A DNA stretch of 63,151 bases, counting the filler, from Collodictyon triciliatum (lineage: Eukaryota), in NCBI GenBank assembly GCA_043381765.1. It is 7 parts of 7 records of this genome, joined end to end, with 100 filler letters (N's around TTAATTAATTAA, not from the genome) between each part and the next. Parts side by side here need not be neighbours in the genome. Positions count along the whole stretch, not along the records: positions 10,903 to 21,732 come from JBHJMP010002558.1; positions 21,833 to 32,630 come from JBHJMP010002559.1; 5 more parts are not named here. The stretch is one strand, 5' to 3'. Below, piece by piece: positions 1,075 through 44,380 of this stretch. Within the stretch, counting starts at the first letter, position 1. Each line of letters begins with the position of its first letter. A program made the translations under genes and the position numbers. A model generated the notes under the pieces. That model was not told the origin of the DNA. It did no database searches and worked only from the letters and a program-made list of their open reading frames with translations.

Positions 1075-2762
1075 ATGCTGTCAACGACACGCACCCTGCC
1101 AAGCCTTGTAGGCACCCTTTCCCGCGCGCTGCCCACCGCATCGCTGCAACAGCGCCGCATCACCTCCGGTAAGACGAGCAACCCACACCACTTCCTCCGT
1201 TCCCTCCCTCCCTCCCGCCTTCTTTCAGACAGGACCCTCCGCATGACAGGAGGCAGCCACCATTCGGCACCAGGCTCGAGTCTCGACGCACGAAAAGGCG
1301 AGGGACTTGAGACCTCAGACTTTGAGAGCAACGACTAAACAAGTTGCGGGCCCACGGGCCGGGTTGTGGGCGCAGGCAGCCGAGAGGGACTGATCCCGCC
1401 GCACGGAGGCAAGGGGCTGGTGAAGCGGCTGCTGCAGGGGGCGGAGCTTGCGGAGGAGCGCAAGAAGGCGCAGTCGCTGCGGCGGGTGGACATCACGACG
1501 CGGGAGAACGGAGACCTGATCATGATGGGGATCGGCGGGTTCTCGCCGCTGAGCGGGTTCATGGGCAAGGGCGACTGGCAGCGGGTGTGCTCGGAGATGC
1601 TGCTGCAGGACGGGACGTTCTGGCCGATCCCGATCACGCTGTCGGTGGACGCGCAGGTGGCGGGGTCGCTGCGTGCGGACGAGGAGGTTGCGCTGTACTC
1701 GGAGGGCGAGCTGATGGCGACGCTGCAGGTGCAGGACGCGTATGCGCTGGGGGCGGCCGAGAAGCAGTTTGAGTGCCAGCACGTCTTTGCCACCACCGAC
1801 ACGGAGCACCCGGGCGTCAAGCTGGTCATGGAGCAGAAGCCCGTCAACCTGGGCGGCCCCGTCAAGGTCCTGAGCGAGGGCTACTTCCCCACGCGCTTTG
1901 CCGGCATCTACCAGCGCCCCGACGAGTCGCGCGCCCTCTTTGCCCAGCGCGGCTGGAAGACCATTGCCGCCCTGCAGCTGCGCAACCCCATGCATCGCTC
2001 CCACGAGTACCTCGCAAAGATCGCCATCGAGGTCTGCGACGGCGTCTTCATCCACTCCCTCGTCGGCAACCTCAAGGACGGCGACATCCCCGCCGACGTC
2101 CGCGTCCGCTGCATCGACGTCCTCGTCGACAAGTACTTTGTCAAGGACAAGGTCGTCCAGGGCGGATACCCCCTCGACATGCGCTACGCCGGCCCCCGCG
2201 AGGCCCTCCTCCACGCCCTCTTCCGCCAGAACTACGGCTGCACCCACATGATCATCGGCCGCGACCACGCCGGCGTCGGCGACTACTACGGTGGCCTTCC
2301 CCTCCCCTCCCCTCCGCATATTTGTTACCGTACTCATTCTCTCACACATCCGTACAAGCACGCGTGCCACACCTTCATTTCCTCCCCCCAGCCTTCCTAC
2401 TTCCTCCTTCCTCGCTCACCCGCTCTCCCTCCCGCCCTGCAGGCATGTTCGACGCGCAGCTCATCTTCGACAAGATCCCCAGACCTGCCGAAGAGGGCAA
2501 GCGCCTCCTCTGCGAGCCCCTCAAGATCGACTGGACCTTCTACTGCAAGAAGTGTGACGGCCCTGCCTCCCTCCGCACCTGCCCCCATGACAAGAAGGAC
2601 CGCGTCATTGTCAGCGGAACCATGCTGCGCAAGCTCCTCTCTGAGGGCGGAACCATCCCCGACCACTTTGGCCGCGACGAGGTCCTTGAGATCCTCCGTG
2701 AGTACTACTCCTCCCTCACAAAGAAGGTCGAGGTCAAGCTCCACAAGGCCGCCACTGGGTAA
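1075..2762 (+). CDS. sat: Sulfate adenylyltransferase (ATP sulfurylase) with N-terminal mitochondrial/MRO-type presequence; exons 1075-1168, 1376-2290, 2443-2762
   Basis: Motifs [47 protein letters not shown]. Two GT-AG introns (1169-1375, 2291-2442) restore one frame ending at TAA 2760-2762. Confidence 0.95.
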
Positions 2763-3388
2763 ACACCCTCCCCCATCGCACCCTGAATCTCACACCATGC
2801 ACCGCCTGTCCCCTCCCTTGCGCGCGCTCTTTCCTCAGGATTCTCATCCCGTTCCTTTCTCTTTCATTTTGAACCTCGCTTTTCTATTTTCTCTCTCTCT
2901 CCCTCCCTTTCCCTCAGCCCATGCGCACCCTAGCCACCACACACGCACTCACTCATACTCTTAGACTCACACTAGACGTCTCCCCTCTCGCCGTCTTTAT
3001 TTTTTCTCTCTTTTTTTTTCTATGGCTCGTTCCATAGTACTATTGTTGAAATTTGTTTTTCTTCTCAAAGTGTGTGGGTGTGTGTACATCTGAGTAGGCG
3101 ATGACTGGGTCAAATTACTCGCTGTGAGGGAATGAAGTCTTTCCTTTCCGTCTCCTTCATAACCCTTTTTTTTTTATCTTCCTGAACCATATGAATCCTG
3201 CCTGGTGGTGCCTAGAGACATCAGTATACTTTCCTTTAGAAAAAAAAGATAATAAAAATATCAATCTTTGTGCGCATCTCTAATCCGAACTAGAATGACC
3301 AGCGCAAAAGCAAACCTCGTTCTTTCCTTATGCTTTCCCTATGTCCTCCTCACTATCACTCCCTATTGACAAACAGACAAACCAACCA

Positions 3389-3414
3389 ACATTGAATTGA
3401 ATAAAGGAAAAAAA
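3389..3414 (+). mobile_element. Possible degenerate copy of the micro-insertion
   Basis: acattgaattgaataaagg+An flanked by aaaccaacca at 3379-3388 and 3415-3424. Confidence 0.45.
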
Positions 3415-4221
3415 AAACCAACCATCTGACATGCGAGGAGCTTGACATCTGGTCGTGAACACTGTCTTCTCAAACTACGCACCCATAATAACCCTGGCCT
3501 ATTGAACGCCGGAGGATCCAGGACAACCTGTTGGGTCACACCAGGAACCCACACCACCACCGGGCGGGACTTCGGGGAAGGGAAAGAGACGTTATATTTT
3601 CCACAAATAGGCTATCCATTCCTCCCACAAGTCTGTCCGAGCTGCTGTTTTGACATGTGATGTTTATTTCCCATATGTGACTTCGTTATTGATGACGGAG
3701 AGTAAATGACGTCATCGTACAAAGAATATACTTTTATTGACTCTTTTCTATGTTCCTTGCAGTTTCATCCAGTTTTAGTTCCATTTTTCTCTTTTTTTTT
3801 TTTTTTTGAAAGCCAAAGAACCTCATGTCAAATAGAAACGGCGCGTATATAGAGCAACTCAACGTACGTGCTGTCCAGACAAACAAACTGGCCAAGAAAC
3901 GAACAATTCTGCCCGCCCTACTCGGCAAAACTGCGCCACACTGAGTGCACAAACTCCAAATGAGAAGACCCAGGAGGCCTCTCTTTGGATTCTTTAGAGT
4001 GCGTGGGATCGTAAAAAAAAGAAAAAGAAAAAAGTGTAAAGATGATAAAAAAAAAGGAGTCCAAAGATAAGAAAACGATATCCATCATGTTCCCTTCGTA
4101 TCCCCCCCATTCCACCATGCATCACGAGCCTGTCAGGACAGGAATCGGGCAGCACACAACTCAGCAACAAAACAAAATGCAACGGCAGAGAAAGCAAGGC
4201 AGGATCAGAAGGGCCCCGGGG

Positions 4222-9200: not shown

Positions 9201-9993
9201 TCGCATAGAAAATGAAAAACGATTACGAGAAGGTGAACTAGTCGGACTCATGAAGGCCAAAGAAGGAGAGCGTTTTGAGTTGGTCCGAGTATCTTCGGGC
9301 TCGTGACGAATGCTTCTTGGAAGAGATGTGTCTGATAGAGCGACAGAGGCCTTTTTTGGTGGCAGATCTGGTGATAGAAGCCCGGACTCTATTAAGTGTG
9401 ATGGAACAAGGAATATTGAGATATAAAAAATAAATAAATATAATACAAAACAAAAAGCATAGACAAATAAACATAAGACGAGTGGGTTAAAGGATGTCTA
9501 TGAATCGAAAAAAAAAGGAAAGAAATCAAAAGTGTTGGAGAAAAACCGCATCGCATGATAGTTCATCAAATAAAAATAAAGTTGGTATTGATATCTTCTG
9601 GTTCTAGATGTAAAGAATAAAAAGATATCAGTTATGAGGGTTAAAAGAAAAAAGAAAATATAAAAAAAGGAAAACACAGCATAAGAAGACATAATAACTT
9701 GATCCTTGGGGTAGTGGCTCGCTTTGAGAGGCAGATGGAATACGATCCTTCCGTTCAGAGACTGGGCCGACCGAGGACTCGGTGAGACTGGAGGGGACGG
9801 GTGAGTTGGACACAAGAGAATAAGAGCGAATGGCTGGAGAGTCCTGTGAGGTGGAGTCCAACTCGGTGGAGTTGTTGGGATCCTTGCCACTGACAGAAAT
9901 AAGATGCGTCCCATTGGTTTCCACGGGCGGGCTTTCCTTCGCCTGGGGCACAACTTTGGAGGAGAAAAGCCTGGACGAGACAACTCCGCCCAT
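6267..9993 (-). CDS. PP2C (PPM) phosphatase with N-terminal LRR region, about 8 exons
   Basis: GRRQKMED, LFDGHGG, ACAGDSR, LLLGCDGVWDV and GTADNVSVVVV spread over GT-AG exons; RI-like LRRs at ~8400-8870; MGGVVS myristoylation-like start; TAG stop at 6267. Confidence 0.85.
6999..7112. repeat. Intronic (AAG)n microsatellite; similar tracts: (AAAC)n 7742-7813 and 29525-29630, (TTTA)n 12531-12639 and 40985-41064, (AAT)n 30278-30391 and 43429-43523, (TTTC)n 39915-40013, (TTG)n 59692-59790
   Basis: Direct reading; these explain the poly-L/S/I/N ORFs in the track. Confidence 0.95.
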
Positions 9994-10802: not shown

Positions 10803-10902
10803 NNNNNNNNNNNNNNNNNNNNNNNNNNNNNNNNNNNNNNNNNNNNTTAATTAATTAANNNNNNNNNNNNNNNNNNNNNNNNNNNNNNNNNNNNNNNNNN
10901 NN
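10803..10902. other. Artificial contig spacer (also 21733-21832, 32631-32730, 43524-43623, 54414-54513, 61051-61150)
   Basis: Identical 44N-TTAATTAATTAA-44N block with stops in all six frames. Confidence 0.98.
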
Positions 10903-11085: not shown

Positions 11086-13070
<1,985 letters not shown>

Positions 13071-13357
13071 GATTGCGGCTGACTCTTGGACTCTTTTCCT
13101 TCTTGCTCTCTTGTGGGTTTCTCCTTCTAACCTTCCGCGATCCTGAACCGCTGAACCTGAGATTCGTTCCGATTCCGATGGATCTTGTTTGTTCTTGTGA
13201 CAACTTCCTGAAACCCACAAACTCGAAACACTTATTTCATTTCGCTTGGCTCCAAGGGACGTGCGAACCATTCCATTGAAAACAAATCACGCACGATATG
13301 AATAAAGAAAATATGCAAGATTCTACGCGCTGTAAGTTGTGGTTATGGTTAACATAG

Positions 13358-13771
13358 GAGGCATCAAGACAGCCTTCGTTACATGTCCAGAAAGGATACC
13401 CCAAAGAGAAGCCAACACAAGAACCAGCGCCCACCAAAGATAGTCCGTTTATCCTGCCCCAGCCCGTCGCACCGAGAACCAAGGAGCAAGAGCAAATGCC
13501 ACAAGTCGAATCCAAGCTTGGAACTCCACACACCAAAGACAGTCCGAGCAAGCAGGAGCGTATGTTTCTAAAACCACAAACGCATATTCATACTCCGGTT
13601 AAGCAAAGTCCACTGCCGGCTACGCATGGTTCCGAAACCAGGGGACGGTCAAGCGCCACTTCCGTGAATACCAGACAAACAACGACATATCGCTTTTTGT
13701 CTGAATCTCCCAGCAAGAAACGCAAGGAAAGTGACCCGTTGTCCCCTCAAAAGACTCATCCTGTGGAATGA
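13358..13771 (+). CDS. Hypothetical Pro/Ser/Lys-rich terminal exon
   Basis: Open frame after an AG acceptor (aacatag), ending TGA 13771; no family recognised. Confidence 0.35.
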   Translation, partial: EASRQPSLHVQKGYPKEKPTQEPAPTKDSPFILPQPVAPRTKEQEQMPQVESKLGTPHTKDSPSKQERMFLKPQTHIHTPVKQSPLPATHGSETRGRSSATSVNTRQTTTYRFLSESPSKKRKESDPLSPQKTHPVE

Positions 13772-13798
13772 AATAGGATGTAATACATTGTCTGAGAT

Positions 13799-13823
13799 TT
13801 TTTTTCCTTTATTCGATTCAAAG
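13799..13823 (-). mobile_element. 25-nt micro-insertion with a 17-nt target-site duplication
   Basis: CTTTGAATCGAATAAAGG+A7 (minus strand) between identical aatacattgtctgagat at 13782-13798 and 13824-13840. Confidence 0.85.
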
Positions 13824-14543
13824 AATACATTGTCTGAGATAGATGGTTGAAAGGGCTCGTCGAATCGATTTGAGAAGTAACTATCATGTGCGTACTTTCA
13901 TCGACCCGACAACTTTATTGGCTCTTTACAAGTGTCGAATACAACCAGAAATCACGTTGGAGCCGAACCACCTCGGGTAGAATAGACTGCATGTGAGAAC
14001 ACTTTCTCTCCTTTCCATTTTCTTTTTCTCTTTATCTTTCTTTTTCTTTCCACCCAAAACACAAAAACTTCAACCACACAATCCGAGTTTTCCACTGTCT
14101 TGTCCACAGCTCACTTTTGTCCTAGAGGTGAAGGCGGTGACCTCGGCTTTGATTTTCTTGAGATAAGCTTGAAGAGAAAAAATTATAGGAAAATCTTTTA
14201 ATATAAAGCCATTATATATTTCATACTGTAAGGCAGTTCAAGTATTGCAATATCCCCCAAAATACTGTTTAACGTCTTCCAGTTTATTCTTATAGTTTGA
14301 GTAAGAATTCAGCGTAGATGCCACGTGATTCTTTGTGTGTCACACAAAAGCAGATGCCACATAGTCTGGTTGAGCAGCTCCACACCTTTGAAGGCTTGGT
14401 TATGTAAGACGTATGTTTTCTTTTGAAGCGTGACAAAAGGAGTGAACTTCACGGAGGTGAAAGAAGAGAAGAGAAGTGGCGGAATCTTGTGAATTGTAAT
14501 ACAGACAGTATAGAACATATGTTACTGCCTTTGGATTCAGCTT

Positions 14544-16658
14544 CTAAGTATCCTTGGCCACCTTCACATGGCGCCAGATGTTCCTCGCCTGGAATTCAGT
14601 TAGGTTGAACGGGTCTGAATTCAGGTCTTCCACTTCTAACTCGACAAATTCCTTCCCGGTTACTCTGAGTTGTGACACGATATCTATAAACTTTTTGATT
14701 ATATTCTTTTCCTTCAAGTAGGCTACAAGCTCAGTATTGTTCATATCCTAGACCGACGCATTATTTTCACCTACCGGAGCTCCAGGGTTTCTCTGGATTT
14801 CAATGAGTCTAGGCTCCAAGTCGGCTGCAGAGGGGCGTTCTCGAGGTTCATATCTCCAGCACTCACTTAGCAGCCGAGCAAGCTTGGCAGAAGTTTCTGA
14901 AGGGATTTCAGGTAAAATTTTGTTTGTCTTCTGCATTATTATACTTACATGAGGAAGTCCGTCATAAGGCCTCTTCCCCGCCAACATCGCCCAAATCACG
15001 AGCCCAAGTGCATAAATATCACCCATCGCACCGAAACCTTCAATGATTTCGACGAAATCGGGTGCGATGTAATGATATGTGCCTTTGAATTCTATTGTGC
15101 TTGATACTGTATCATGAACGATTGAGTTGCCAAAGTCACATAACTTTGCCACGCTACCACAGAGCAATATGTTCTCGGGCTTTAAGTCACGGTGTTCTAC
15201 AGGGGGATTGCGGGTGTGAAGGTAATTTAATCCAGCGTTGATATGAATAGAATATTCCATACATCTGTCGAACTTAATTGGCCCATTTTTCAAAATATCA
15301 TCCCAAATACTTTGTCTGTCGGCATATTCCATGACGTAAAATACTTTCGTCTTGTTGCACCCGTAAGCATAGAGTCCGATAATGTTTGTATGTGTCAAAG
15401 TCTCCATTAACTTCGCTTCTGTGGTCAGCTCTTCGTATAATGCGGTGCCCGCCTTTGCTGTCTTTCTAAGAACTTTAACAGCAAAGATACCTTTTTGGAG
15501 TTGAACTTTATACACTGTGCCAAAACCTCCGTCTCCAAGAACCTCCTGCGAGGTGAGGTCGATGTTCATAATTTCACCATAGTCACCAGTCACCAATTCA
15601 CTCTCAGGAGCCGCTATTTAACAAAGAATTTAATCATCTAACTAATGCGTTTATTTTTATAGCTTTTTTTTTTACCTTCTTCTATGCGAATTTCTTCGGC
15701 TCTGTGAGTTTCTTCAGCTTTTCGGACTTCTTCCACTTTATGAGCTAACTTAGCTGGGTCAATCTTTGTTATTTCATAATATATTAGTAGCTGTCTATTT
15801 CTGCTCAAATAAATTTTTAAATCATTAAAATAAAATCTCAGATTAATATCAGGTATGAATTAAGAAAGTCTCGTGTTTAGAATATCCACATACATGGGCG
15901 GTCACGAGATCAGCACGAAACTCAGACAAGGTTATGCGCTCCTCTGGCGTTTGACGCAAAGCCCTCGCCACCAACTCTTTCATTTTTGGATCAGTAATTG
16001 TTTTTATATCAAAGCGACGGACTTTGGGAATCTTTTTGGAGAGAAGCATCCATAATATAAGCCCTATTGAGTAAACCTCGCTCTTCTCTTGGACATAAGA
16101 GCCACAACGGAACACTTCTGGCGGATATATTGCTATGTATTGGATTTTAGAACTTGAATCTCCACGTTGAAGACTATCACGTAGCTCGCACATCCCAAAA
16201 TCACACAGGGCAACAGTTCCGTTTTCCCTCAGAATGATTTTGTTCGGCCTGATGATGTGATTGAAGGTTCCATGAGAATGTAGAAATCCAACACTGTCAC
16301 AGATCTTTTGAGCTGTGTTTTTGATCATGTCTAAGTCGAAGTTATGCTTGGGAATTATTTTATCAAAGCTTTGTCCTTCGTAGAACTCGCGGACGATATG
16401 TAAAGCGCCCTCTGCAACATAGGCACCCAGATAGGACAAAACCCCGTCATTTTGAGGCAGTTCAACAAGCTCACTGACAGCCCTCATAATCGGCTCGATA
16501 TCTCCAGGTGTATAAAGCATGGATACTTTGTACTGTTTCACTGCGACGATCTGTCCTGTTCTTCTGTCTTTGGCCTGGAAGATGCAGTAATCATCTGCTA
16601 TGAAAATAGCGTTGCCCAAAATAAGGTCAGAGCTTTGTAGTTTGACAAACTGCGCCAT
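14544..16658 (-). CDS. Tandem pseudokinase + TKL-like kinase, followed in frame (across TAG 14748-14750) by a SAM-like domain
   Basis: Domain 1 has VAVK and DFG but HIIRPNKI in place of HRDLKPEN. Short linker exon ~15677-15763. Domain 2 has GDGGFG, AVK, HRDLKPEN, DFG. 14544-14744 reads ELVAYL...VTGKEFVELEVEDL. Confidence 0.8.
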
Positions 16659-16839
16659 CTGCTGTCTGCTCTAAGGTGTCGAGTTTTTGGCGTGTATGTT
16701 AGTACTTTTGCCATAGTTTCATCCCATATTATGTTCCTTTGTTCTGTTTTAATTTGGTTTGTTGCAGCCTGGCCTGGTGTTGTCTTATACAGGGTTAATC
16801 GAATATCAGACGAGGTTTCTCTGACCATATTGTGGTGAA

Positions 16840-19800
16840 TTTATTTTATTTTTTCTTCTAGAATATTCTAGAAGGGGCCTAAAAGGTTATGCGGTGCGAG
16901 GGGCGAGATAGATGCGGATGGTGGAGAGCAAACGCAAGTAGGAGAAGACGTTACTGTGAAGAGAGGCCAGCACTGGGAGGAAATCAGTGATAGCGAGTTG
17001 GTCAGGTGGGCGTCCCATCTGGTTGATTGGTTGCGTGGGTAGCAGGGGTTAGATATGCTGTGGGAGATATCTTACGACACATTCCCACATCTCTCTTCAC
17101 TTGCAGTCAAAGTAGTGAAGAATGCGAGCGTGTTTCAGCAGACTGTTCAGGAAGCTGTATTGCACGAGGCTTTCCAGCCTGGCTACATTGATTTCTCGTT
17201 CGGGTGAATCATTAGAGCGAGAGAATGCACGCACACTCCATAAGGCCCACAGCATATGTCCCCTTGTGACTGTCCAGAGTATTCTAGAGTCGTGGGTCAT
17301 TTGGTATTGTGAGCCAAACAGGATGTCAGACGCGTTGAGTCGGCTGGGAGCAAAATCAAGCTCAGAGAGCATCTTGTGGGTCGATTCTGTAACTTTTTGA
17401 GCAAGAGAGCACTTCACAAATGTGTGTTCGATAGAGTCATCTCCACTATGGCACATGGTGCATTCTGGGGAGGTCGTTGCTGCATGGAATACACGCGCAC
17501 CTATCCACAGCTCTCTGTTGGAGATATTGAGCAGTAGGGCGTGATGATTTCGGGAGTAGCTGAGGTATGCGGACTTGCTTCCAGCTTTTGACTATCGGCG
17601 GGTTTATAATGCCTATAGTTTCGGCCCATCGACTCATTTTCTCCGGTTTGTAGGGATTCGGACTGATGATTTTATATCGAAACAGCTTGGAGTACGCCAT
17701 GGCCATCGAGAATTGTGGAGAATCAGGCGTAATGGACCGCCTTTGGTTCTATAAGCGAAAGAAAAATGGCGACGGCGCTCCGTATGAGATGGGACGTCGT
17801 GAGCGCCATTCTCCTTTGTTGTTCAGGACGGCTGTGGTTGGGGTTGTATTCGTAGAGTGAAATATCGTTGCATTTTTCGGCGGTGCGAAGTTTCCATCCT
17901 TTTGGAAAGCGACTTGTTGCAGGATGAAGGAGCTGTTTCCTTCTCTCGACTTGACGATACAGAAGCCTTTTGCTCTATCCCGGCAAAGTTGGCACATAAC
18001 AGCATGTAGTTGGGTAGACTCGCAAATTTCACAGTTTTCATACAGAACCTTCCACCGCGCTAGTAGCGGCTCGGGCGTGTTTGGCGGAGGTGATGGCATT
18101 CTAATCTCACAGAGCTATGCCTTGAAGTTCGGGCATATGCGATGGATAAGATGCCACATTCCACGCTGCCAGAATCCTTTCGGATGGGTAAGCATATCTG
18201 TCCACCATCTCATCGTGAGTGATGTCCATGCAATGCCATGCTTTATGAGTCCCAGCCCTCCCTCCGTGGGTGGCTTAGAGAGCGTCTTGATTTTATATTT
18301 TTGATTATTCAAAGTGATGAAGTTGTGGCAGACGTCTTCCAGCTCCTTCAACCTCTGGAGATTCAGCAAAGTGCCTTTCATGTTGTAGATAAGGGTCGAC
18401 AACATCACTTGGTTCCACAACCTTACTTTCCCCACGTCCGAGAGATGAAAGTTGCTCCACACTGATATTTTCGACTTGATGTCCTCAACCAGGCTCGTCC
18501 ATTTGTTATCCGATTGTGGACCGAATATGATACCAAGATACTCCTTTGAATCGAATAAAGGAAAAAAAATGATACCAAGATACTTGAGTGGATGTGACGG
18601 TGGCTTCCACACAATATTTCCTGGAAACATAGGTCCATCTTGAAACCCAAAAAGAATTCCATCTGTCTTGTCTTAGTTGATTATCCCGCCGACAGCTCGT
18701 GTGTATTCTTGGATGCATTTGTTGGCGAGTGTGGCGCCTTTGGGAGACTGCAAGATGAATGCTGTGTCGTCTGCGTATTGAAGTAGCAGTTGGTTGCGTA
18801 CCTTGTTTTCGTTTCGGAAGTGGTTTGCAAGGCAGTCAGCGACAAATTTGAAGAGAAGTGGTGCAAATGGGCAGCCTTGATACACCCCGCTCTGTCTTTG
18901 GATTGCATCTGTAGGTCCGTGTGCCGTGAGTACCCTCGCTGTTGCATTGTCGTACATTTTCTTGATAAGACCGGTGAATCCGGTACAGAAGCCTCTTTTG
19001 TGTAGGATGATTTCCAGTGCTTCGTGGTTCACGTAGTCGTATGCTTTCTCCAGGTCGTAGAAAATCATAGCGCGGGGTATCCCGCTTACTTGATATTCCA
19101 TGTACTCTTTGTTGACAATCCAGATGTTTATATCGATGTTCCTTCCGTTCATGAAGCCAATCTGCTCTTTGGATATGAGTTTGTCAGCGATGGGTAATAT
19201 GCGATTTCTGAGTAGCGTCGTAAATATCTTATACTCGTTATTCAACAGCGATATTGGCCGCCAGTCTGCGAGATTGCTCGAGTTTCCTTTCTTTGGTATC
19301 AGCCGCACCGTGGCCTCTGTAAATCCTTGCGGTAGGTCGCCACCAGACATGATTCCATTCAGAAAAGTCACTAAGGATGCCTTGACCTCATTAAAGAAAG
19401 CAGAGTATATTCCGTTGGGCAGCCTATCTGGTCCTGGCGCCTTTCCGTTGTGCAGCGACTTGACCGCTTTCCACAATTCGCCTGCATCTATTGGTGCTAT
19501 CATGCTGGCTGCTTGCGAGGGTGAAGCCTTAGAGCAGTTTGTGGTGATAAGCTCGAGAGTAGCAGCATCATAGTCTCGTCTTGACCATATCTTTGAGAAG
19601 AAGTTGTGGGTATTCTTTTTGTTGTTGCGAGGTAATTAATGCTGCATGTCCTCATATGGTGTGCAGAACGGATACAATGTCTTTTCTTTTCCCTTTCCTA
19701 GTCCAAAGAACTATTTATCCATCTGTTCAAAGTCTCGCAAGTATCTCGCCTCCCATTTTTCACGGTATTTGTGAATATCCGATGTTAGCTGCTCCGCAAG

Positions 19801-21732
19801 TTTATCTTACAAGCTCGCCAGTTTTTCTTTTTGGGTGCGTTTCCACCCCGATGGTCTACCGGCTGCTCTCATCAGAGCCTCTTTTTCCATTCCAAGCTTC
19901 TTCCGCTCCTCTCCATCCTTATTTTTGAACCAGCTCGATTTTTGGATAAGAATAGAGAGCTGCTTTTTGAGTATTGGCCATTCCGCCTCGATGAGCGCAT
20001 CACCCGGGTATTGAAGTAAGCCCTGAGCTTGTTTTGTATATCTTCTATCGACTTGGAGTCATTGTATGCCCTCCAGTCTATATACATCGCCATTATTTTG
20101 AAAAATAGATCAGTAAACCCGCAAATAACAAAGGGCGGAAGGTAAAGAATAGACTGTTCTTAGTTTCTTGAACCACGCATGCAAGTCCCTTGAGCAGAGG
20201 AAGCGGTCGATTCTGCTCCACATGAAGCCGCTTTTTGTATGTCTTCTACACGTTGCTCCTAGGGAGTGAGGATTGAGCGTCTTCCAGGGTCTTGCAGCTT
20301 GTGCCTGATTGTCCAGTCGACGAAAGGTTTGTCATTGCGTGTCGAGGACTCAGACCACTCGGTGCTGGCATCAAGAAGAGCGTTGAAGTCTCCACAGATG
20401 ATGATATGTTTCGCAGACTCCATCTCCTTAGAGATAAGCTCATACTCGTGTATTCTAGTATTTGAACCTGCTGTTTGGAGCGACATGTATGTCGTCATTA
20501 TACGAGTGTCAGCTCCATCGATCTGAAGCGAGGATTGAGTTTGGCTATCCATTTCTTGCATAAAAACGCTACACCTGCATGTCTATTGATTATCGTAACA
20601 GGACCACATTTGTGGACCTTTCCATGTTTGATTTTGGTTAGATTGCCATGGCTGAGCCATGTTTCTTGGAGGCAGATGATATCTGCGTGAGAGAAAAGAG
20701 CAGTGTTTAGGGCCTCTTTTCTTTTTTGGGGGTCGTTAATCCCCTGAAGTTCCACGATAGAACGTTAAAACGCATGAGTAGTCTATTGGCTTTTGGAGGC
20801 CGTAGCCTCCGGTGATTGGCCCTCTCCGCTGGAGCTGGGTGTCTCAGAGTGGGATGGTTTACATGAGTTACCCTTATTTGGCCGGTGTTATGATTGCTCG
20901 CGGTTCGGCCAGGATTTGTCGGATGGTTTTGGACTTTGGGCTGCAACCCCCATTGTAGCTGGTGTCTTGGGAGATGCACTCTGTTGGTCATCAGCAATCA
21001 TGGATTCCGATTTTCCTCTACTATCCACGCGGTAGGCAGAGTCACCCATGTTTCCACTTTCATTCTGGCTTGCTTTCTGGCTCGCTATATTCGGTGGTGT
21101 GCTTGACTGATTCACTCCCTTTTCATCGGGCGAGGCTTTATCTTCGATTGTTTCGGTCTTTTTTGGTGCGCCAGTGATTGCAGGATGAGTAACCGGTGTT
21201 TTATATTCATCTACGGTTCTTTTTCTTGGATAGGATGGTGTTTCTTGCTGGGGAGTCGCAAGAGTTTCGACAGCAGGTCCGCTCCCATAAACAGTACTTG
21301 AGGAGTAATTCGTTGTTCCCGAAGCTTCAAGGTGCTCGCTGTCTTCTTCAGCAGAACCTTCTATGACGACGACAGGTTGTATGGACTGTTGTTAATCCAA
21401 TCCCGAGTCTGGGACGTCGCTTCTTATAGATTGTGCAGTACTTGCTGAAGAAAGAGTCTCTTGAGTGATTCCAGGAGTCATGACCTCTAAGGAGGTAGGC
21501 GGGTGTGGTTTGCTGGGTGCCATTATGCTGTTTCCCGATTCTGTTACCGAGTTGGCTTGGATTTCCCTTTCCTCGGCATCCTCTCCATGATTTGAAGGTG
21601 AGCTTGGTGAGATATCATCGGCTTGAGGAGGTTGGAAATCTTGGAGGCATGCGATGTTTCCTCCACTTTGAAGCCATTCCACGATTGATACTGCTTCCTC
21701 TGTGTTCATTGGTGAACTTGATGCACTTTCGG
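16840..21732 (-). mobile_element. Degenerate non-LTR retrotransposon (APE + RT, L1/Tx1-like), 5' end cut by the spacer
   Basis: APE motifs SWNFRG, ICLQET, ICGDFN, SRIDRF; RT motifs KAPGPD, WRPISLLN, DLEKAYD, GVYQGCPFAP, QYADD, KYLGI; C-terminal C-x2-C...H...C; several frameshifts and stops; A-rich 3' tail near 16840-16854. Confidence 0.93.
18543..18568 (+). mobile_element. 26-nt micro-insertion with a 16-nt target-site duplication, nested in LINE ORF2
   Basis: cctttgaatcgaataaagg+A7 between identical atgataccaagatact at 18527-18542 and 18569-18584; duplicates YLGII in the ORF2 translation. Confidence 0.88.
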
Positions 21733-22658
21733 NNNNNNNNNNNNNNNNNNNNNNNNNNNNNNNNNNNNNNNNNNNNTTAATTAATTAANNNNNNNNNNNN
21801 NNNNNNNNNNNNNNNNNNNNNNNNNNNNNNNNACAAAAACAAAAACAAAAACAAAAACAAAAACAAAAACAAAAACAAAAACAAAAACAAAAAACAAAAA
21901 CAAAAAACAAAAACAAAAACAAAAACAAAAAGAAATCTATTGTATATTCCGCGATAACCTATTTCTTAACTTTGCCTTGGTGCAGCGCCTTGGGCAGGCT
22001 AAAGTCCCGCAGCATCTCAGTTGGGTGCTGGGACCCAGGCCATTGCCGATCGTTGGCGACGCACGAGCGGCGGAATGATCACACCATATCAAAACAGGGC
22101 AATCCTTCCTTTCCGCACGAAAACGGTTTCCTTTTGAGATTATACTTATATGGAAATTATAATATATTGTATTTATTTATAATGATGAATCCTATTATTG
22201 AATAAAGTATCAATTTTTTTAGTAGTTATTACTATATATTAGTCACAAATATGAAATTCCATAAATATGCGCTGAGCAGATAAACGCTGAGCTGAAATGT
22301 GTGACAGAAGCAGCCGACACAGCTCGATAAACAAGCATCCGCTCCGCCAGTTCAGGTCGGCTGCGTTTCCAGGCTCAATGGACAATTCGCACTCAAGTAT
22401 TCTGTTCTCCCCTAAGTTGGTTTGATACTCCTGCAATCATGTTGCAAGACCCTTACCTATTCGTAGAAGGAGAGCCTTCTTGTTGCGGCAAAAAAAGAAA
22501 CAAAGAAACAAAGAAACAAAGAAACAAAGAAACAAAGAAACAAAGAAACAAAGAAACAAANNNNNNNAGAAACAAAGAAACAAAGAAACAAATCCTGTGG
22601 GGGTTTAAATGAATAGCTTGTACAATGGTGCAAAATGCCCTGTGATATTTGGTCAAAG

Positions 22659-22687
22659 TTTTTCCCCCTCTTTTATTCGATTCAAAG
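22659..22687 (-). mobile_element. 29-nt micro-insertion with a 15-nt target-site duplication
   Basis: CTTTGAATCGAATAAAAGAGGGGGAAAAA (minus strand) between identical gatatttggtcaaag at 22644-22658 and 22688-22702. Confidence 0.85.
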
Positions 22688-22853
22688 GATATTTGGTCAA
22701 AGCCAACTTTGTATTATTTTTGAGTTTTCTTGGGTGACCTCCTAGTTTTTTTTTTTTTAAAGGTACTATCAGCTTACAGGCTTTTATATAACTATCACAA
22801 GTCCTCTTAAAATCAAACTGAAAAGCAAGTGTTTTTTTTTTTCTTACAGAGAG

Positions 22854-25800
22854 ATGAACAAGTACGAAGTGTTGGGCGTCATTGGGGAAGGTATGCGAAG
22901 CAGATAAAACAATTCATTTATTATCATTTGTCTCTAATTTTTCTTTCAAGTTTGAGGTCGAACCTTTGGTTAACCGCGATAAAAATGAGAAAAATGAGAA
23001 AAAATGGTCGAAGAAAAAAATCTGACGGAATACTTAAATTACTCAAATATTCATAGGTGCCTACGGAATAGTATTAAAATGTAAAACTAAAGTAAGTCTT
23101 TCTACTTGTCATTTGTCCCTTTCATTTTCTCCTTCACTTGAAGTGTGAAGACAATGTTTTAATTTTTTTCAGCTGAATTATTCAAAAATATTAACATTTT
23201 AATAGGAAAACGGCAGACTGGTCGCAATAAAAAAATTCAAGGAGAGCGAGGGTTCTTTTTATTATTATTATTATTTTTGTTGTTGTTTGATTTACTTTTC
23301 TGTAAACCATCCACAACAGAGAATAATACTTAAAACATATACTTTCACAGATTATTTCAACATGTTTGACATATTTTTTTTTTCGTTGCACTCCTTTTAT
23401 TTTATGACAAAAATCAACCTGTAAACTTTCCAACATATCATACAATTTTCTTTTGAAACAATAGAGGATGAGTCGGTCAGGAAGACAACACTACGAGAGG
23501 TCAAAATATTACGCATGCTAAATCAGCAAAACATAATTGGATTAAAGGAAGCTTTTCGGCGAAAAGGGAAACTATATCTAGTGTTTGAAGTACCATTTTA
23601 ATGACAAAATGATAATTCGGGGCCCACTTCTATGTCTTCTCAATTCTCTTAGTGTTTATTCCGTTTATTCTCGTGGTCTATACATCACTATTATGTTTTT
23701 TTCCCTTCATCCGTTTCAAAGGTGGTATTCTTATCTCTATAAGAAATAAATAATAATACCACAATTAAAAAAAGAAATCTTCCTTGAAATTGAAAATAAT
23801 TATCTTCATTTTGAAAAACAACCACTGAAATCAGCACCATTCAACCTAACCTACTGGGAATATAAAACGAAGCTATGGATACATGATTTATTTATTTGCA
23901 GTACATGGAATATAATTTATTGGAAGTACTCCAGCAACATCCAGATGGATTAGATCCAGAGATTGTACGGTCATATATATACCAGCTTGTCAAAGCGACA
24001 GATTATTGCCACCAACATAGTATCATTCATAGAGGTACATAATATTTTCTCACAATACAGACAAAACAAACAAAATTTTGACATGGTGCGTTTAATATTT
24101 AATTTATTACTGATTGGACTTGCTCACAAATAAATGCATAAATGGTTAGACATAAAGCCTGAAAACCTTTTAGTGAACACAGATCAGATGTTAAAGCTAT
24201 GCGACTTTGGTACGAACATAGCCATATTAGTCTTTCATAATCGTTCGATAAGTGCTCACGCAGATAAATTATCTCATGTACAAATTGAAAAAGAGACTTT
24301 GTACCAAAATCGGGTGGTCAATCAATACATGAACAAATTAGCCAAACCCCAAACTTCTAGGATTCGCTCGAATATCATCCAAGCAAGGGAATGATTACAC
24401 AGACTATGTCGCTACTAGATGGTATCGGCCACCTGAGCTGCTTTTAGGGTATGCGATATATATTTTTTTTACATAATTTCCTATTTGATAATGAACCAGG
24501 CTCCGTTTTCATCTTCGAGCCATATCAACTTACATGTGCACTTTTTTTTTATCTTACAGATCCACAAATTATGATAAATCGGTCGACATATGGATGATTG
24601 GTTGTATCATGGCCGAACTTATCGAAGGGCAGGCACTTTTCCCAGGAGAGAGCGACCTCGACCAATTGTCAATTTTATTTTATTTTATGTTATTTTAGTT
24701 GAAGTATGTATATTTACATTTTTTTTTTAATATTTATAGCTATTCTTCATAAATAAATTCAGCTTGCATATTTAAAATCACATGAGAAGAAAAAGAAAAT
24801 AAATGAAAACTAATCATGTGTAAAATCGAGAGACTCGAGCTCAGAGGAGATACAGAAGAAACACTTATACTTCAACGTTTTTGATAGGTACATTATCCAG
24901 AAAACCTTGGGTCCTCTCATCCAAAGCCACTCGATTTTATTTTCCAAAAATCCTAGATTTGCTGGTTTCAAATTTCCTGACATGACAAAGCCAGACGGAC
25001 TAGAAAAGAGATTTTCGAAGCGGATTAACAAAAATGCGATGGGATTTATGAAGGTCATTTGCATAACCCTCAACTTTCCTGCGTTTATATAATGATTCCT
25101 TACCTGAATGGATTCTATATAATCTTGCACTTAGTAAGATAAATTATGAAATAATTAATAAAGGGGATACTACAAATGGACCCGAGCTCACGCTTCACAG
25201 GGCAGCAATGTCTAAACCACCCGTGCGTCAATAAATCATAATAATAAAAAAAATGATTTAAACAATAAAAAACAATAAAGAGTAAATAAATAACATACTT
25301 TATTTTAATCCGATCTTTTAATTGCCCATGCGCCACATATTTACTCTCCAGTATCTCAACATAACATAGTTTTTAAATATTTACGAATGACATTAAACTT
25401 TTTGTAACTGCTTTTTTTTGTTCAATCAAAATAATCTAAACAAATCTATCGCTATATTAACTTAAAAGGTACTTTGAAGGACTGGACGAACTAATGAAGA
25501 AAAATGAGTTAAACCAGAGAAAAGCAGAGTTATCTCGAAAGGATAATTCTACGCGCGAGGTATAAACCCCATACCACCACAATTTACAAACACTGAAAGA
25601 AAGAATGAAAAGAAAATAATACCGATGTATTAATATTCCAACAAGATATTTAGCTTACAAACTTTTTTCCGAAGCAATTAAATTTGTGATTTCCACCCAC
25701 CTTATCCTCAAATATAGCAGAGCCGAGCTGTTCCCGAGGAAAATAATGGCCTTTTGCGAGTGAGGTCATCTACCAATTTAAAACGAGTTTCAATCGAAAA

Positions 25801-27288
25801 TATCGCAGAGCTCGAACAATCAATTTCTTTAACAAACACACCAGTCAATCGGGCACAAAATGTGATAGCTCCATGTATACCTAACAGCAGTCAGTTGGCA
25901 GAGCGAGTTCCTATGCAAAAGTATGGAAAAGGATTGTTATTGGAAGAGTCATCAGATACTACAAGCCAGGCTCTGCGCCCACGGTTTCCCAGAGACATCA
26001 CAGATTTTAATGGAGATAATCGGATTAAGAGTGAATTATCGACAAACGAGAAACTTCGCAAAGGAGAGTATGAAAAATTCGAGTGCGAATCTTCAGAGCA
26101 CGAAATTCCTGAAGAACAAGCAAAGATTCGTGAGCTCATGGCGTTGCAAGAGCGAGGTGGCTCAAGATTGGGGGTTAGAGAGCCTATTCTTGGGCCAGTG
26201 AGTGGCCATCGGGCCACCCAAGCCCTGCAGGATGTAGTGCTTGGTGATTCGGTAAGTTGATAATTAGATTCCTCCGTAACTGCAAATGCACCAACCCCCT
26301 CGCAACACGAAGTCGATGTCCGAGGATTCCTAAAAACATTTACGGTATTCTCTAGGATAACAAAAGAGCCCTGAGTCGAGGGGAAGTACGAACACCGGTT
26401 CAATTGCGGGGCAAAAAGGCAGCAGCGGCAGCAGCACAAAGTTCAAGCCAACCAGACTCAGTCGCGCACACAGCAACGAGCATTTTTCATGGAGAAGCTC
26501 ACACCCAAATCGGCGTAGGGCGGCGGCCGCGAAAGGCGATGATTGACGACGAAACGCTCCACAGGAAAAAGGAGAAAGAGAGCGCCACACAGCCTCGCGC
26601 ACAAATGGCGCATGTAATCGGGCAGAACAGCAAGGAATCTGTTTTGCTGGAGGAGCTGTACTCCATTCACGACCGAAGACAGCCCCACGTCGCGGCCCTG
26701 GCGAATCCGAGGCAGCCAGGCGATCCGCAAAACACCATCACGCGAAGGCGAAGGGTTGCGTCTCATCACACACAGACACTCATCAACACATCTGTTCGAC
26801 ACGGCTCTCTCTGTCTCTCTAACCACCTTTTCCGACACACAGGGCCGTTCGGACGGGAGTCTGGAAAGTGTGTGCCACTCAAGACCTGCCACGAGAGGCG
26901 ATAACACAACAAACACCAACGAGTTCTACAACCCTGACAGGACCGTCTCCTCGAGAGCGCTCCAAGCGGGTCAAGTCGACGAAGAAGCAGCGCGGGAGTT
27001 TGCCAGTGGCCTCCAGGTAGACGCGCCGGGCGAGACCACTTCCAGACAAGTGACTCTTTCACAACTTTTTTCTTTTTTTTTCCTATTTGCCAGCGGCTGT
27101 CAACCATCCTTGACTCAGCATCAGGGTCTGTTGACAAGAAAAAAGAAAAAAAAAAGAAAAGAAAAAAGAAAAGAAAAAAGAAAAGAAAAAAGAAAAGAAA
27201 AAAAGAAATAAGAAAAAAGGAAAAGACTAACAGTCGTTCCTATCTATGCTCTCAGACTAGTAGGCTCAGCCCCGCCCCGCGCTGGTGA
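22854..27288 (+). CDS. CDKL5: Cyclin-dependent kinase-like (CDKL5/LF5-type) kinase with long C-terminal tail, about 15 exons
   Basis: [84 protein letters not shown]. Kinase introns are GT-AG with the frame intact; tail exons are less certain. Confidence 0.9.
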
Positions 27289-27594
27289 CCAAGGCGAAGT
27301 CGTGTGACATGAGGATTCAGGGTTTGGACTATGTCTGGGAGACTAAGATTCAAAACCTTGAGAGTCAGGGAATAAAGAGTACCAATAGAGCAGCTGGGTT
27401 CCTGAGAGGATAAAGCTGCAAACATATTTGATTGCACGCTACTGTGACATGATAGAGGAAAATGGGAGCATCAAGACAGTTGACTCTCATTTGCCGAGAA
27501 GGGCAAGACAGGCCGCAGCCTGACTTGGTGTCGGAAGGAAAATCACAAGGCCTCCGCAAGCGACACGGGGGATTCTGGTTTATGGGTCACAGGT

Positions 27595-28122
27595 TTAGTA
27601 GAAGAAACCAAGGATCTTGCCTCCGGTGTGGCGGCGGCGGGCCTCTTCGTGGTCCATGATACCGTACGAGGTGGTGAGGACGACAACACCGTACTGGCGA
27701 GAAGGAAGCAGGGTGGTGACCCACTTCTCAATGTCATCGAGGGTGACGTCGAAGCGAGGGCTGATCACACCGCACTTGGTCAGGCGGCCATTGAGCTCAA
27801 CGACGATCTTTCCAGAGCGATGGTTGTCGATGATTTCGAATTCACCGATGTAACCTACATGCAATCAATTTATCATGAATAGACAGATAACAGGACTAGA
27901 AACGATCATGCGTGACGATTGAATACAGAGGCGAGAGGTTTCATGGACACACTGGAGCTAAGGATGTTATAGGTGGGAGTGCATTGACTAACCGTGCTTC
28001 TGCATGACTTGGAGGAATTTGACGACGACCTTGGACTGGGGACCGACCAAGACCTGGCGCTTTCCAGAGCGCTCGGCGTTGACCAAGGCGCGGAGAACAT
28101 CGGCAAGAACACTGACTCTCAT
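27595..28122 (-). CDS. RPS15A: 40S ribosomal protein S15a (uS8), one coding intron and a 5'UTR intron (~28126-28535)
   Basis: [10 protein letters not shown]...GKRQVLV...[29 protein letters not shown]...[11 protein letters not shown]. Confidence 0.97.
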
Positions 28123-28821
28123 GTTCTAATAAGGGTCGTTGTGGGTCATAAGAAGCGGTCATTTACGGGGCCAACTGGATAAAGGGTGGAGAGGGCGTTT
28201 GGGAAACAAAAAGCAGCATCCTTTCTCCAGTTAGCACATAGGATTCGCGACTGCGATCAATTCTTCAAGATTTCGGGTTTGAACTGATGGGGTTCGCAAC
28301 GATCTGAATCAATCGATCGATTGTTCACGTTTTCAAGTGAGAGCCAAAGCTTGTAGGTAAAATGGGTCTCTTAGGTTGTGAGCTAACTGATGAAGAGACC
28401 ACAGGGAAGTGTAAAGTCCCGGCTTGATGTGCTGGGAAGCTAGCTCTGTACCAACAGAAATGCCCAACAGATAACCAGCCCTTACTGGGACAAAGACTTG
28501 ATGGGGAGGTTGCAAGAGGATGCGAGGGTACTTACAGAGGTTTTAGGGTGGGCACGATACTTTCCGTGGGTGCGGTGGACACGATACTTTCGCTTTGGGG
28601 CCGAAGAGAAGAGAAACTTTACTTCCGAAATCTGGCCATTGAGAAAAATTTTACATAGAGCAGAATGAAATTATTTCCCTTTTCTGGAAAAGGGAGGAAT
28701 CTGGGTGTTTTGCTGTATTACCGCCACGATTTTCGGAGCAAAGGCAACCAAAACCAAGCAAAAAATCTGACCTTGGCCGCTCTTGTGTGGGCGGAGTTTC
28801 CTTTATCTTGAGAGGTAGTTT

Positions 28822-28847
28822 CTTTGAATCGAACAAAGAAAAAAAAA
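28822..28847 (+). mobile_element. Older copy of the micro-insertion with a diverged target-site duplication
   Basis: ctttgaatcgaacaaag+A9 flanked by tcttgagaggtagttt (28806-28821) and tcttgaagggtagttt (28849-28864). Confidence 0.7.
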
Positions 28848-28862
28848 TTCTTGAAGGGTAGT

Positions 28863-31749
<2,887 letters not shown>

Positions 31750-32630: not shown

Positions 32631-33310
32631 NNNNNNNNNNNNNNNNNNNNNNNNNNNNNNNNNNNNNNNNNNNNTTAATTAATTAANNNNNNNNNNNNNN
32701 NNNNNNNNNNNNNNNNNNNNNNNNNNNNNNTTTTTTTTTTATTTTTTTTTTTTTTTTCTTTTTTTTTTTTTTTCTTTTTTTATTTCTCTTTTTTTATTTC
32801 TCTTTTTTTATTTCTCTTTTTTTTTCTTCCTTTCAATTTGTGCACTTTTAATTCCTATTTACTTCAGTGTTTTTTTTAATTTGTTATAAAAGCGAAACTA
32901 GCTACTCAGTAGACTCGATCAGCTGCTCAGTCTCGCTGCGTGTGGAGGTTCTTTGTACCGTGGCAGCAGCATCTGGGGACGAATCCATCGGGCGGTGGTT
33001 TAGAGTTTCCTACCCTGGACACGATTCAGCAGTGAGATTTCCTTTCGCATTCGTTTTTCCTCCGTCAGAGCGCGGCTTCGCGGGTTCTGCGTGGTTCGTG
33101 GCGATCTGCTGCGAGCGGGTTTTGGGCTGTGTGGACTTTATCGGGCTCTATTCTCCATATGGAAACTGAGATTTCGACAGGAAAGGTGATTTATTTATTT
33201 GTGGAATATATGGTATATATTAAATTCAATTTACTTTATTTGGTTTAGATAGCCTAATTAATATAAATTTCATTTACATGATCGATAAATAATAGAATTA
33301 GTATTCATAG

Positions 33311-43523: not shown

Positions 43524-44380
43524 NNNNNNNNNNNNNNNNNNNNNNNNNNNNNNNNNNNNNNNNNNNNTTAATTAATTAANNNNNNNNNNNNNNNNNNNNN
43601 NNNNNNNNNNNNNNNNNNNNNNNAGAAAAGAAAAGAAAAGAAAAGAAAAGAAAAGAAAAGAAAAGAAAAGAAAAGAAAAGAAAAGAAAAGAAAAGAAAAG
43701 AAAAGAAAAGAAAAGAAAATAACAACGAAACAAAGAAACAAACAAAAAATCAAACTCTATAAATTTATAGTATAGATAGATATATACTGATTGAATAGTA
43801 GTCCATAGTTGTTCATTTTTTTTTGTGAACTCTATGTTGTTACTGTCCTTACTAATATACTTTTAAAATACATGTTGGTTTTTGTTTGGTTTGGATGATT
43901 GTCTCTGATGTTATAGAATCGGATTCTATAATTGCATTCATATCCTTCGTTCTCTTATAGTCGCATTTATTTTATTGGAAGATATAGTCGTAGACATAAA
44001 TAAGAGGACATGCAATCGCATTGTGATTAAATGATTTGTCGTTATTGTCTATTAAAATTTTATATATAAAACAATATTTCAGACACTTCCTCATCTACGA
44101 GTATTTTTACGTGATTGTGGTGGATTTTTATTGATCAAAAGACAAATTGGATGTTTATATGTAATAAACATGAGAAGCCAATCATTATGAATCAAAAAAC
44201 CGTGAAGGCGTGAAAACAAAAAAACAAAAAACAAAAAAAAAACAATTTAATGAAACTATGAGTTTGAATACTATGATATTATTAAAATGACAATATCATT
44301 AAAACTGTAAATATGTTTTTGATATCGCTATCAATTAATTAAAATCCAACGCAGCAGGAATAATCGTGCTTTGTACCGGA

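Follow-up and report, generated by a model that had tools for sequence, protein, structure and literature searches.

Background

The cause of the 5' truncation of long interspersed nuclear elements (LINEs) is debated, and fall-off of the enzyme, damage to the RNA and repair by the host are the candidates. The 5'-truncated, dead-on-arrival insertions of L1-type elements are products of target-primed reverse transcription (TPRT) from LINE RNA: they are co-linear with the element's 3' end, carry an A tail, are flanked by target-site duplications (TSDs) of variable length around 15 bp, and stem from a source with an APE endonuclease, a reverse transcriptase (RT) and a zinc-binding C-terminus. Their truncation points are scattered over the element. 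Other elements share the tail of a partner LINE, as in eel UnaSINE1/UnaL2, the Drosophila suffix and trypanosome RIME/NARTc; these short interspersed nuclear elements (SINEs) and other non-autonomous elements carry the 3' end of the partner and are inserted by its machinery, measure roughly 80-500 nt, have a promoter or 5' module of their own, and form replicating lineages. Here we describe, in a stretch of 63,151 bases from the genome of the eukaryote Collodictyon triciliatum (assembly GCA_043381765.1; hereinafter the window), a set of insertions of 25-29 nt that consist of the terminal 16-18 nt of an L1-like LINE together with its tail, and that begin at a single nucleotide of this LINE.

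These insertions agree with the truncated L1-type copies in the features listed above, the APE endonuclease and the zinc-binding C-terminus of the source being putative here, except that the short copies all start from one nucleotide, 16-18 nt before the tail, rather than from scattered points. With the tail-sharing elements they have in common the 3' end of the partner LINE and the use of its machinery, but they lie far below the size range of those elements and are better read as stereotyped by-products of the LINE than as self-propagating elements. A functional analogy, with no claim to homology, can be drawn to the template-boundary elements of telomerase and to the R2 protein bound to the 3' untranslated region (UTR), where the RT copies a short defined stretch and the boundary is set by RNA-protein contacts. 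Very short TSD-flanked 3' remnants of LINEs that can be mistaken for SINEs are also alike, although the insertions in the window have a fixed and much smaller length; truncated RTE copies retaining the 3' end only appear in excerpts of one such account (PMC2887409). Part of a report by Yamaguchi, Kajikawa and Okada (2014) on L1 inserts in DT40 cells describes TSDs of about 15 bp and mostly direct joins, which it relates to arrival of the RT at the transcript's end (PMC4245944). The junctions in the window resemble those described in that part of the report in their ~15-bp TSDs, in their direct joins or single extra nucleotides and in the lack of microhomology, whereas the inserts described there come from engineered L1 in cultured cells, full-length or variably truncated, and are not a fixed 18-nt product. 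In the open-access literature we found neither a description of fixed-length LINE-tail insertions of ~25 nt nor a paper on mobile elements of the diphyllatean (CRuMs) group. If nearly all products of one LINE subfamily stop at one nucleotide, they would offer a natural system in which to separate the causes of truncation, and 16-18 nt plus an A tail would suffice for integration by an L1-type machine.

Results and discussion

Short tailed insertions with a common start

The window is made up of seven separate contigs joined by linkers of the form N44-TTAATTAATTAA-N44 (positions 10803-10902, 21733-21832, 32631-32730, 43524-43623, 54414-54513 and 61051-61150) and has a G+C content of 41%. Microsatellites lie at most of the contig ends and the assembly is fragmented. 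Three of the contigs carry the short copies and a fourth carries the LINE end, and neither distances nor copy numbers per 63 kb are those of one stretch of chromosome.

The 15-nt motif TTTGAATCGAAYAAA has five exact matches in the window and eight at up to two mismatches, compared with a mean of 1.13 in shuffled sequences at the latter setting (0 of 100 shuffles reach eight). Insertions account for four of the exact matches. They measure 25, 26, 29 and 26 nt (ins1 to ins4, Table 1), all begin CTTTGAATCGAAYAAA (ins2 after one extra C), each end in a run of A and are flanked by TSDs that are mutually unrelated; two lie on each strand. Three of the TSDs are perfect, and ins4, in which the two repeats differ at two positions, looks like an older copy. 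The nucleotides that follow AATAAA vary among the tails (GG, AGAGGGGG, G and AAG). All exact copies of the motif in the window have TSDs on both sides or close a LINE copy, and none is at a candidate gene. A sequence-only reading of this DNA had reported insertions of 25-29 nt with a fixed 5' end, an A tail and unrelated flanking repeats of 15-17 nt, and direct reading of ins1 to ins4 confirms that description. It had also pointed to a possible fifth copy near 3389-3414. Here the motif and a tail of ten A are indeed present, while the core carries two substitutions and the possible TSD is short and falls in low-complexity DNA, and this copy (candidate 5) thus counts as a probable mini-insertion only, weaker than ins1 to ins4. 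Fuzzy matches to the motif at 9499 and 12355 lack the combination of tail and TSD and were set aside as chance.

Two scans that make no reference to the motif each recover three of the insertions, and the observation is therefore not an effect of selection. The first looked for direct repeats that are exact over 11 nt or more and spaced by up to 120 nt; it listed 12 pairs, and three of the four pairs of at least 15 nt flank the motif. The second, which tolerated mismatches and whose filter misses ins4, returned eight pairs; the only three with an A- or T-tailed insert are all among the insertions described here.

The motif as the 3' terminus of an L1-like LINE

A subfamily of L1-like LINEs, which we term A-type, has the motif as its true 3' end. 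The terminal part of one A-type copy lies in the window (Table 1), where it shows 95% identity over 232 nt to a metagenome contig, L012, and 90% to 16961-17093. L012 carries the 3' part of a LINE over 1.16 kb and ends ...GCTACA-CTTTGAATCGAATAAAGG-A10; its last 26 nt are identical at 26 of 26 positions to ins1 and to ins2, while ins4 and candidate 5 match its end at 92-93% identity (93% over 29 nt for candidate 5). The earlier proposal that the motif closes the LINE copy at 54730-54748 is thus borne out both in the window and by an independent contig. In addition, one contig from a public sequencing run (X1, see below) joins the motif to the LINE 3' UTR, the joint running from 13823 to 16975 with a short side of 21 nt.

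A second, degraded LINE copy, into which ins2 has been inserted antisense to the RT region, has a different end, which we term B-type. Its RT region (RVT_1, E 3.1e-26) is that of a non-LTR RT (LTR, long terminal repeat) closest to L1 ORF2p: among solved structures the best relative is human L1 ORF2p at E 1.9e-32, as against 2.9e-19 for R2, and the best database relatives, named LINE-1 or Tx1-like, are at most 35% identical. The APE signatures fall just below the Pfam thresholds (Exo_endo_phos 24.2 bits, cut-off 24.5; Exo_endo_phos_2 26.1, cut-off 27.4), as does zf-RVT (26.4, cut-off 27.5); all three have E values of 8e-06 to 3e-05, and the order of the domains is as expected. The copy is broken by stops and frameshifts, and its 5' end runs off the contig. 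A-rich tails are present at the ends of all three LINE sequences (the A-type copy, the B-type copy and L012).

The two types are 86-90% identical over the ~190 nt upstream and diverge about 7-9 nt upstream of the motif. At the position that aligns with the A-type motif the B-type copy has a perfect palindrome, predicted to form a stem of 8 bp; its 126-nt context has a folding z-score of -2.62, a fold equalled by 0 of 200 shuffles. The A-type motif at the aligned position barely folds. The two subfamilies may differ in the way in which their ends are recognised. The 20-nt palindrome is single in the window, at the LINE itself, and we found no short insertions of the B-type tail there.

Empty sites

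The region 12700-21700, which covers ins1 and ins2, was compared with contigs (rather than raw reads) from four public runs, X1, X2, X3 and X6; parts of it are without cover in X2, X3 and X6. The unique parts of the region are found in X1 at about 98-99% identity, and spliced joints in its contigs make it probable that the run is RNA from a close relative. A stretch of 62 nt at 15614-15675 (GT..AG, minus strand) between two kinase frames is missing from X1 contigs, as is one of 146 nt at 12895-13040 (GC..AG) in a minus-strand gene, and both look like introns. The repeats of the region are present in several freshwater and subsurface metagenomes, whose small shares of sequence words we take as evidence neither of habitat nor of absence.

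At the site of ins2, contigs of all four runs join 18526 directly to 18569. The 42 nt skipped are the sum of the 26-nt insert and one 16-nt repeat, and at the joint 16 nt fit either side, so that these contigs represent other LINE copies with a single 16-mer and no insert. At the site of ins1, joints from 13783 to 13830 are found in contigs of X2 and X6, and one from 13782 to 13830 in a contig of X1; each contig has 3-4 substituted letters between the sides, and a loose end in X3 reads alike. These are paralogous copies of the repeat that hosts ins1, each with a single, slightly diverged 17-mer. For this host repeat, an unclassified interspersed element, the summed depth is very high, both in X1 and in three metagenome runs from freshwater or the subsurface. 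Empty-site paralogues, which the sequence-only reading had proposed as a check, are therefore present for ins1 (as joints in three of four runs) and for ins2 (in four of four). They are paralogues and not alleles and cover two of the four insertions; they show that ins1 and ins2 each arrived together with a target duplication.

The insertions are products of TPRT of the terminal 16-18 nt and tail of the LINE: they are co-linear with its 3' end including the tail, they are flanked by TSDs, and the empty sites carry one copy of the target. The earlier attribution to target-primed reverse transcription is accordingly upheld, by variable TSDs of 15-17 nt, A tails, both orientations, and empty sites for two of the four.

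A fixed 5' boundary

In all five short copies the 5' end is the same nucleotide, a C, to which ins2 adds one further C. Six A-type tails are present in the window, of which five are short and start from this C and one extends for at least 235 nt. Searches of the window by blastn, for which the whole LINE and L012 served as queries, returned three classes of match, namely the long copy, the 3' fragment cut by its contig end, and the five short copies; intermediate lengths, above 29 and below 235 nt, were not represented. At the 5' junction three of the five copies are joined directly, one has the untemplated C, and one has an ambiguity of 1 nt; none of the five shows microhomology to the LINE bases upstream (...GCTRCA). 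The fixed start suggests that copying of the LINE stops at a defined boundary rather than at random.

Table 1. Positions in the window of the short insertions, their flanking duplications, the LINE ends and the repeat that hosts ins1
Feature	Position	Strand	Description
ins1	13799-13823	-	last 18 nt of the LINE, CTTTGAATCGAATAAAGG + A7
ins1 TSD	13782-13798 and 13824-13840		AATACATTGTCTGAGAT, perfect, 17 nt
ins2	18543-18568	+	the 18 nt of ins1 preceded by one extra C, + A7
ins2 TSD	18527-18542 and 18569-18584		ATGATACCAAGATACT, perfect, 16 nt
ins3	22659-22687	-	CTTTGAATCGAATAAA, tail AGAGGGGG + A5; insert read directly as CTTTGAATCGAATAAAAGAGGGGG + A5
ins3 TSD	22644-22658 and 22688-22702		GATATTTGGTCAAAG, perfect, 15 nt
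ins4	28822-28847	+	CTTTGAATCGAACAAAG + A9, then T at 28848
ins4 TSD	28806-28821 and 28849-28864		16 nt, 14/16 match, two mismatches
Candidate 5 (probable)	3390-3417	+	CATTGAATTGAATAAAGG + A10; two core substitutions, one of them CG to TG
Candidate 5, possible TSD	~3379-3389 and 3415-3425		AAACCAACCA(A/T), 10-11 nt, low-complexity CCAA-rich DNA
A-type LINE, 3' UTR and end	54514-54748	+	5' side cut by contig start; ends ...GCTGCA-CTTTGAATCGAATAAAAAG
Degraded L1-like LINE copy, B-type tail, host of ins2	16835-21732	-	ORF1-like region, putative APE endonuclease, RT, putative zf-RVT
B-type terminal hairpin	16855-16874	-	perfect 20-nt palindrome CTTCTAGAATATTCTAGAAG, then A-rich tail
Unclassified interspersed repeat, host of ins1	13344-14113		high summed depth in 4/4 runs, contigs 90-95% alike

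By-products rather than a self-propagating family

The insertions share their 3' end with a partner LINE, as SINEs may do. A SINE would in addition carry a promoter head for RNA polymerase III derived from tRNA, 7SL or 5S RNA; here the 25-29 nt of the insert are the LINE end and its tail only. As 25 nt cannot hold a promoter, the short copies are not self-propagating, and the idea of a minimal non-autonomous element, if it is taken to mean a family that propagates itself, is not supported.

A scan of metagenomes with CTTTGAATCGAATAAARRRR yielded 47 loci, 46 of which look like chance matches without LINE sequence, tail or TSD, while the remaining one is the LINE end on L012; no short insertions were found among the 47. 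A 22-nt motif gave 0 matches in a collection of genome contigs and 0 in a collection of viral contigs.

Possible origins of the boundary

We tentatively favour, at somewhat less than even confidence, the explanation that the boundary is the end of the template, in the form of a cleaved and tailed 3' fragment of LINE RNA bound by the LINE protein. Under this model the LINE RNA would be cleaved endonucleolytically just upstream of CUUUGAAUCG to give a discrete, tailed 3'-terminal fragment, which would stay bound to the LINE protein via its tail. The LINE endonuclease would nick the target, and the LINE RT would prime on the A tail of the LINE RNA and copy only the last 16-18 nt, where it would meet a real RNA 5' end and from there jump to the target DNA, in the same way as with a transcript of full length. 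The second strand would be cut 15-17 bp away, the short cDNA would be joined directly to the target, and each short copy would be made afresh from a LINE transcript. We favour a template end because a non-LTR RT that comes to a true template end makes joins that are direct and ends that are exact, with a nucleotide added now and then; excerpts of one study give untemplated addition and template jumping at template ends as properties of such enzymes (PMC8857657). The more specific proposal, that a host defence nuclease or the element itself cuts the LINE RNA of this deep-branching protist at one phosphodiester bond 16-18 nt before the tail and that the resulting fragment is a complete substrate for retrotransposition, is possible but rather doubtful. 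Were such a defined cut to exist, its product would be the smallest known retroposed unit and would define the minimal cis-requirement for TPRT of the L1 type, and 25-mers bearing AATAAA would be scattered across the genome in large numbers.

Several points weigh against a template end. Direct joining occurs with truncated inserts too, and the type of junction is no proof of an RNA end; moreover, exactness to the nucleotide in five copies could come from a tight protein roadblock. The sample is of five short copies on three contigs, and the counts cover the 63-kb window only. In X1 the summed depth over the LINE declines from 1072 in the 3' UTR bin to 11-40 in the 5' bins, and ordinary graded truncation (or a 3' bias) is probably also at work in this LINE family. 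A source of the cut was likewise not apparent among catalogued RNAs: Rfam families gave no hits in the window at the gathering threshold, and L012, searched at E values up to 10, gave four weak hits (E 0.12-7.9) and no ribozymes. Among the Rfam families, which cover described ribozymes only, no self-cleaving motif (hepatitis delta virus-like, hammerhead or twister) was found adjoining the processed end. A register set by a slicer guide and cleavage after CA were also considered on the sequence, and neither was supported.

Another explanation places the boundary on an intact LINE RNA. The LINE protein, an RNA structure or a modification would hold the conserved 3' UTR immediately upstream of the terminal module, the RT would often stall there, and second-strand cleavage would capture a cDNA of fixed length, which would then be joined to the target, in the manner of a telomerase template boundary and as a form of abortive TPRT. 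It predicts a fixed 5' end equally well, and the boundary does lie where the terminal modules of the two LINE subfamilies begin, downstream of the ~190 nt that they share; the aligned position in the B-type is, furthermore, the 5' base of the strong 8-bp hairpin. Polymerase stalls, however, usually scatter over a few nucleotides, whereas here four of the five ends coincide exactly and the remaining one has a single C added. Nor does the A-type hairpin offer much to such a stall. The fixed 5' end had previously been noted to coincide with the base of a CTTT/AAAG stem-loop and taken to suggest a discrete RNA template or a hard RT stop, but this fold is marginal (-0.1 to -3.1 kcal/mol, with 13 to 167 of 200 shuffles folding as well or better), its stem is missing from the minimum-energy fold of the LINE 3' UTR context, and it is no natural cause of a stop because an RT moving 3' to 5' is already past the hairpin at this point. 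We therefore set the stem-loop aside as a poor candidate for the cause of the boundary; arrest on intact RNA in general is the chief alternative, which we consider rather doubtful.

It is unlikely that the short copies are merely the extreme of a continuous range of lengths produced by ordinary random 5' truncation, with a shared start that arises from small numbers, from ascertainment through the motif or from microhomology. Extreme 5' truncation is the rule for LINEs, as the 3'-only RTE copies in the excerpts cited illustrate (PMC2887409), and the summed depth of the LINE declines from 3' to 5' in all four runs, although depth is not copy number. Nevertheless, the scattered truncation points of ordinary LINE insertions are not seen in the short copies, all five of which start from the same C, and the window holds no copies of 30-234 nt. 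Because uniform truncation over 235 nt would place four further copies at the same nucleotide with a probability of about (1/235)^4, a shared start is very improbable under ordinary truncation. Neither microhomology nor ascertainment fills the gap, given that the junctions are without the former and that the TSD scans were blind to the motif.

An independent small polyadenylated RNA, or a mini-element transcribed by read-through, might instead have served as template, and template switching would have given the A-type LINE the sequence of that RNA as its tail. Until about 7-9 nt before the motif the A- and B-type copies resemble each other, and from there on they differ, as they would after a swap of tails, and the sequences that follow AATAAA vary. 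Yet the first base of the motif is not where the subfamilies begin to diverge, the divergence starting farther upstream, each exact copy in the window stands between TSDs or at a LINE end and none at a candidate gene, no Rfam family has a match in the window, and 25 nt are too few for a promoter; we regard this origin as improbable. Lastly, an artefact of assembly, amplification or library preparation, although it might be suspected in a fragmented assembly with contigs ending in microsatellites and with evidence drawn from contigs rather than raw reads, is scarcely credible, as it would not make different 15-17-nt target duplications around one constant sequence, nor place the motif at a LINE end both in the independent metagenome contig and in an X1 contig, nor account for the substitutions in the older copies (ins4 and candidate 5).

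Gene context and other features of the window

The genes on the contigs are eukaryotic and include a WD40 frame of 3190 aa, protein kinases and an ATP sulfurylase of bacterial type. Candidate 5 lies ~425 nt downstream of the ATP sulfurylase frame and ins1 ~925 nt downstream of a kinase gene, both in sense orientation. It is conceivable that copies with AATAAA and a run of A act as putative scattered polyadenylation signals. The ATP sulfurylase (1339-2964, plus strand) is 69-71% identical to proteins of Kapaibacteria and Bacteroidota, 99% identical to unnamed JGI proteins, 86% to a transcript of Diphylleia rotans and 66% to a transcript of Mastigella, and may represent an old horizontal transfer. 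This one protein is the only lead to the taxon that the window offers, and it points to a diphyllatean (CRuMs) flagellate of fresh water as the likely host. In the segment 3994-5859 all but one of the six reading frames contain long open stretches, the longest of which (621 aa) has no Pfam match; the segment is probably compositionally biased DNA. The WD40 frame (44893-54465, plus strand) reaches the end of its contig and encodes several WD40 propellers; within it, 48819-50801 is a tandem array of 13 units of 135 nt that are 60-82% alike.

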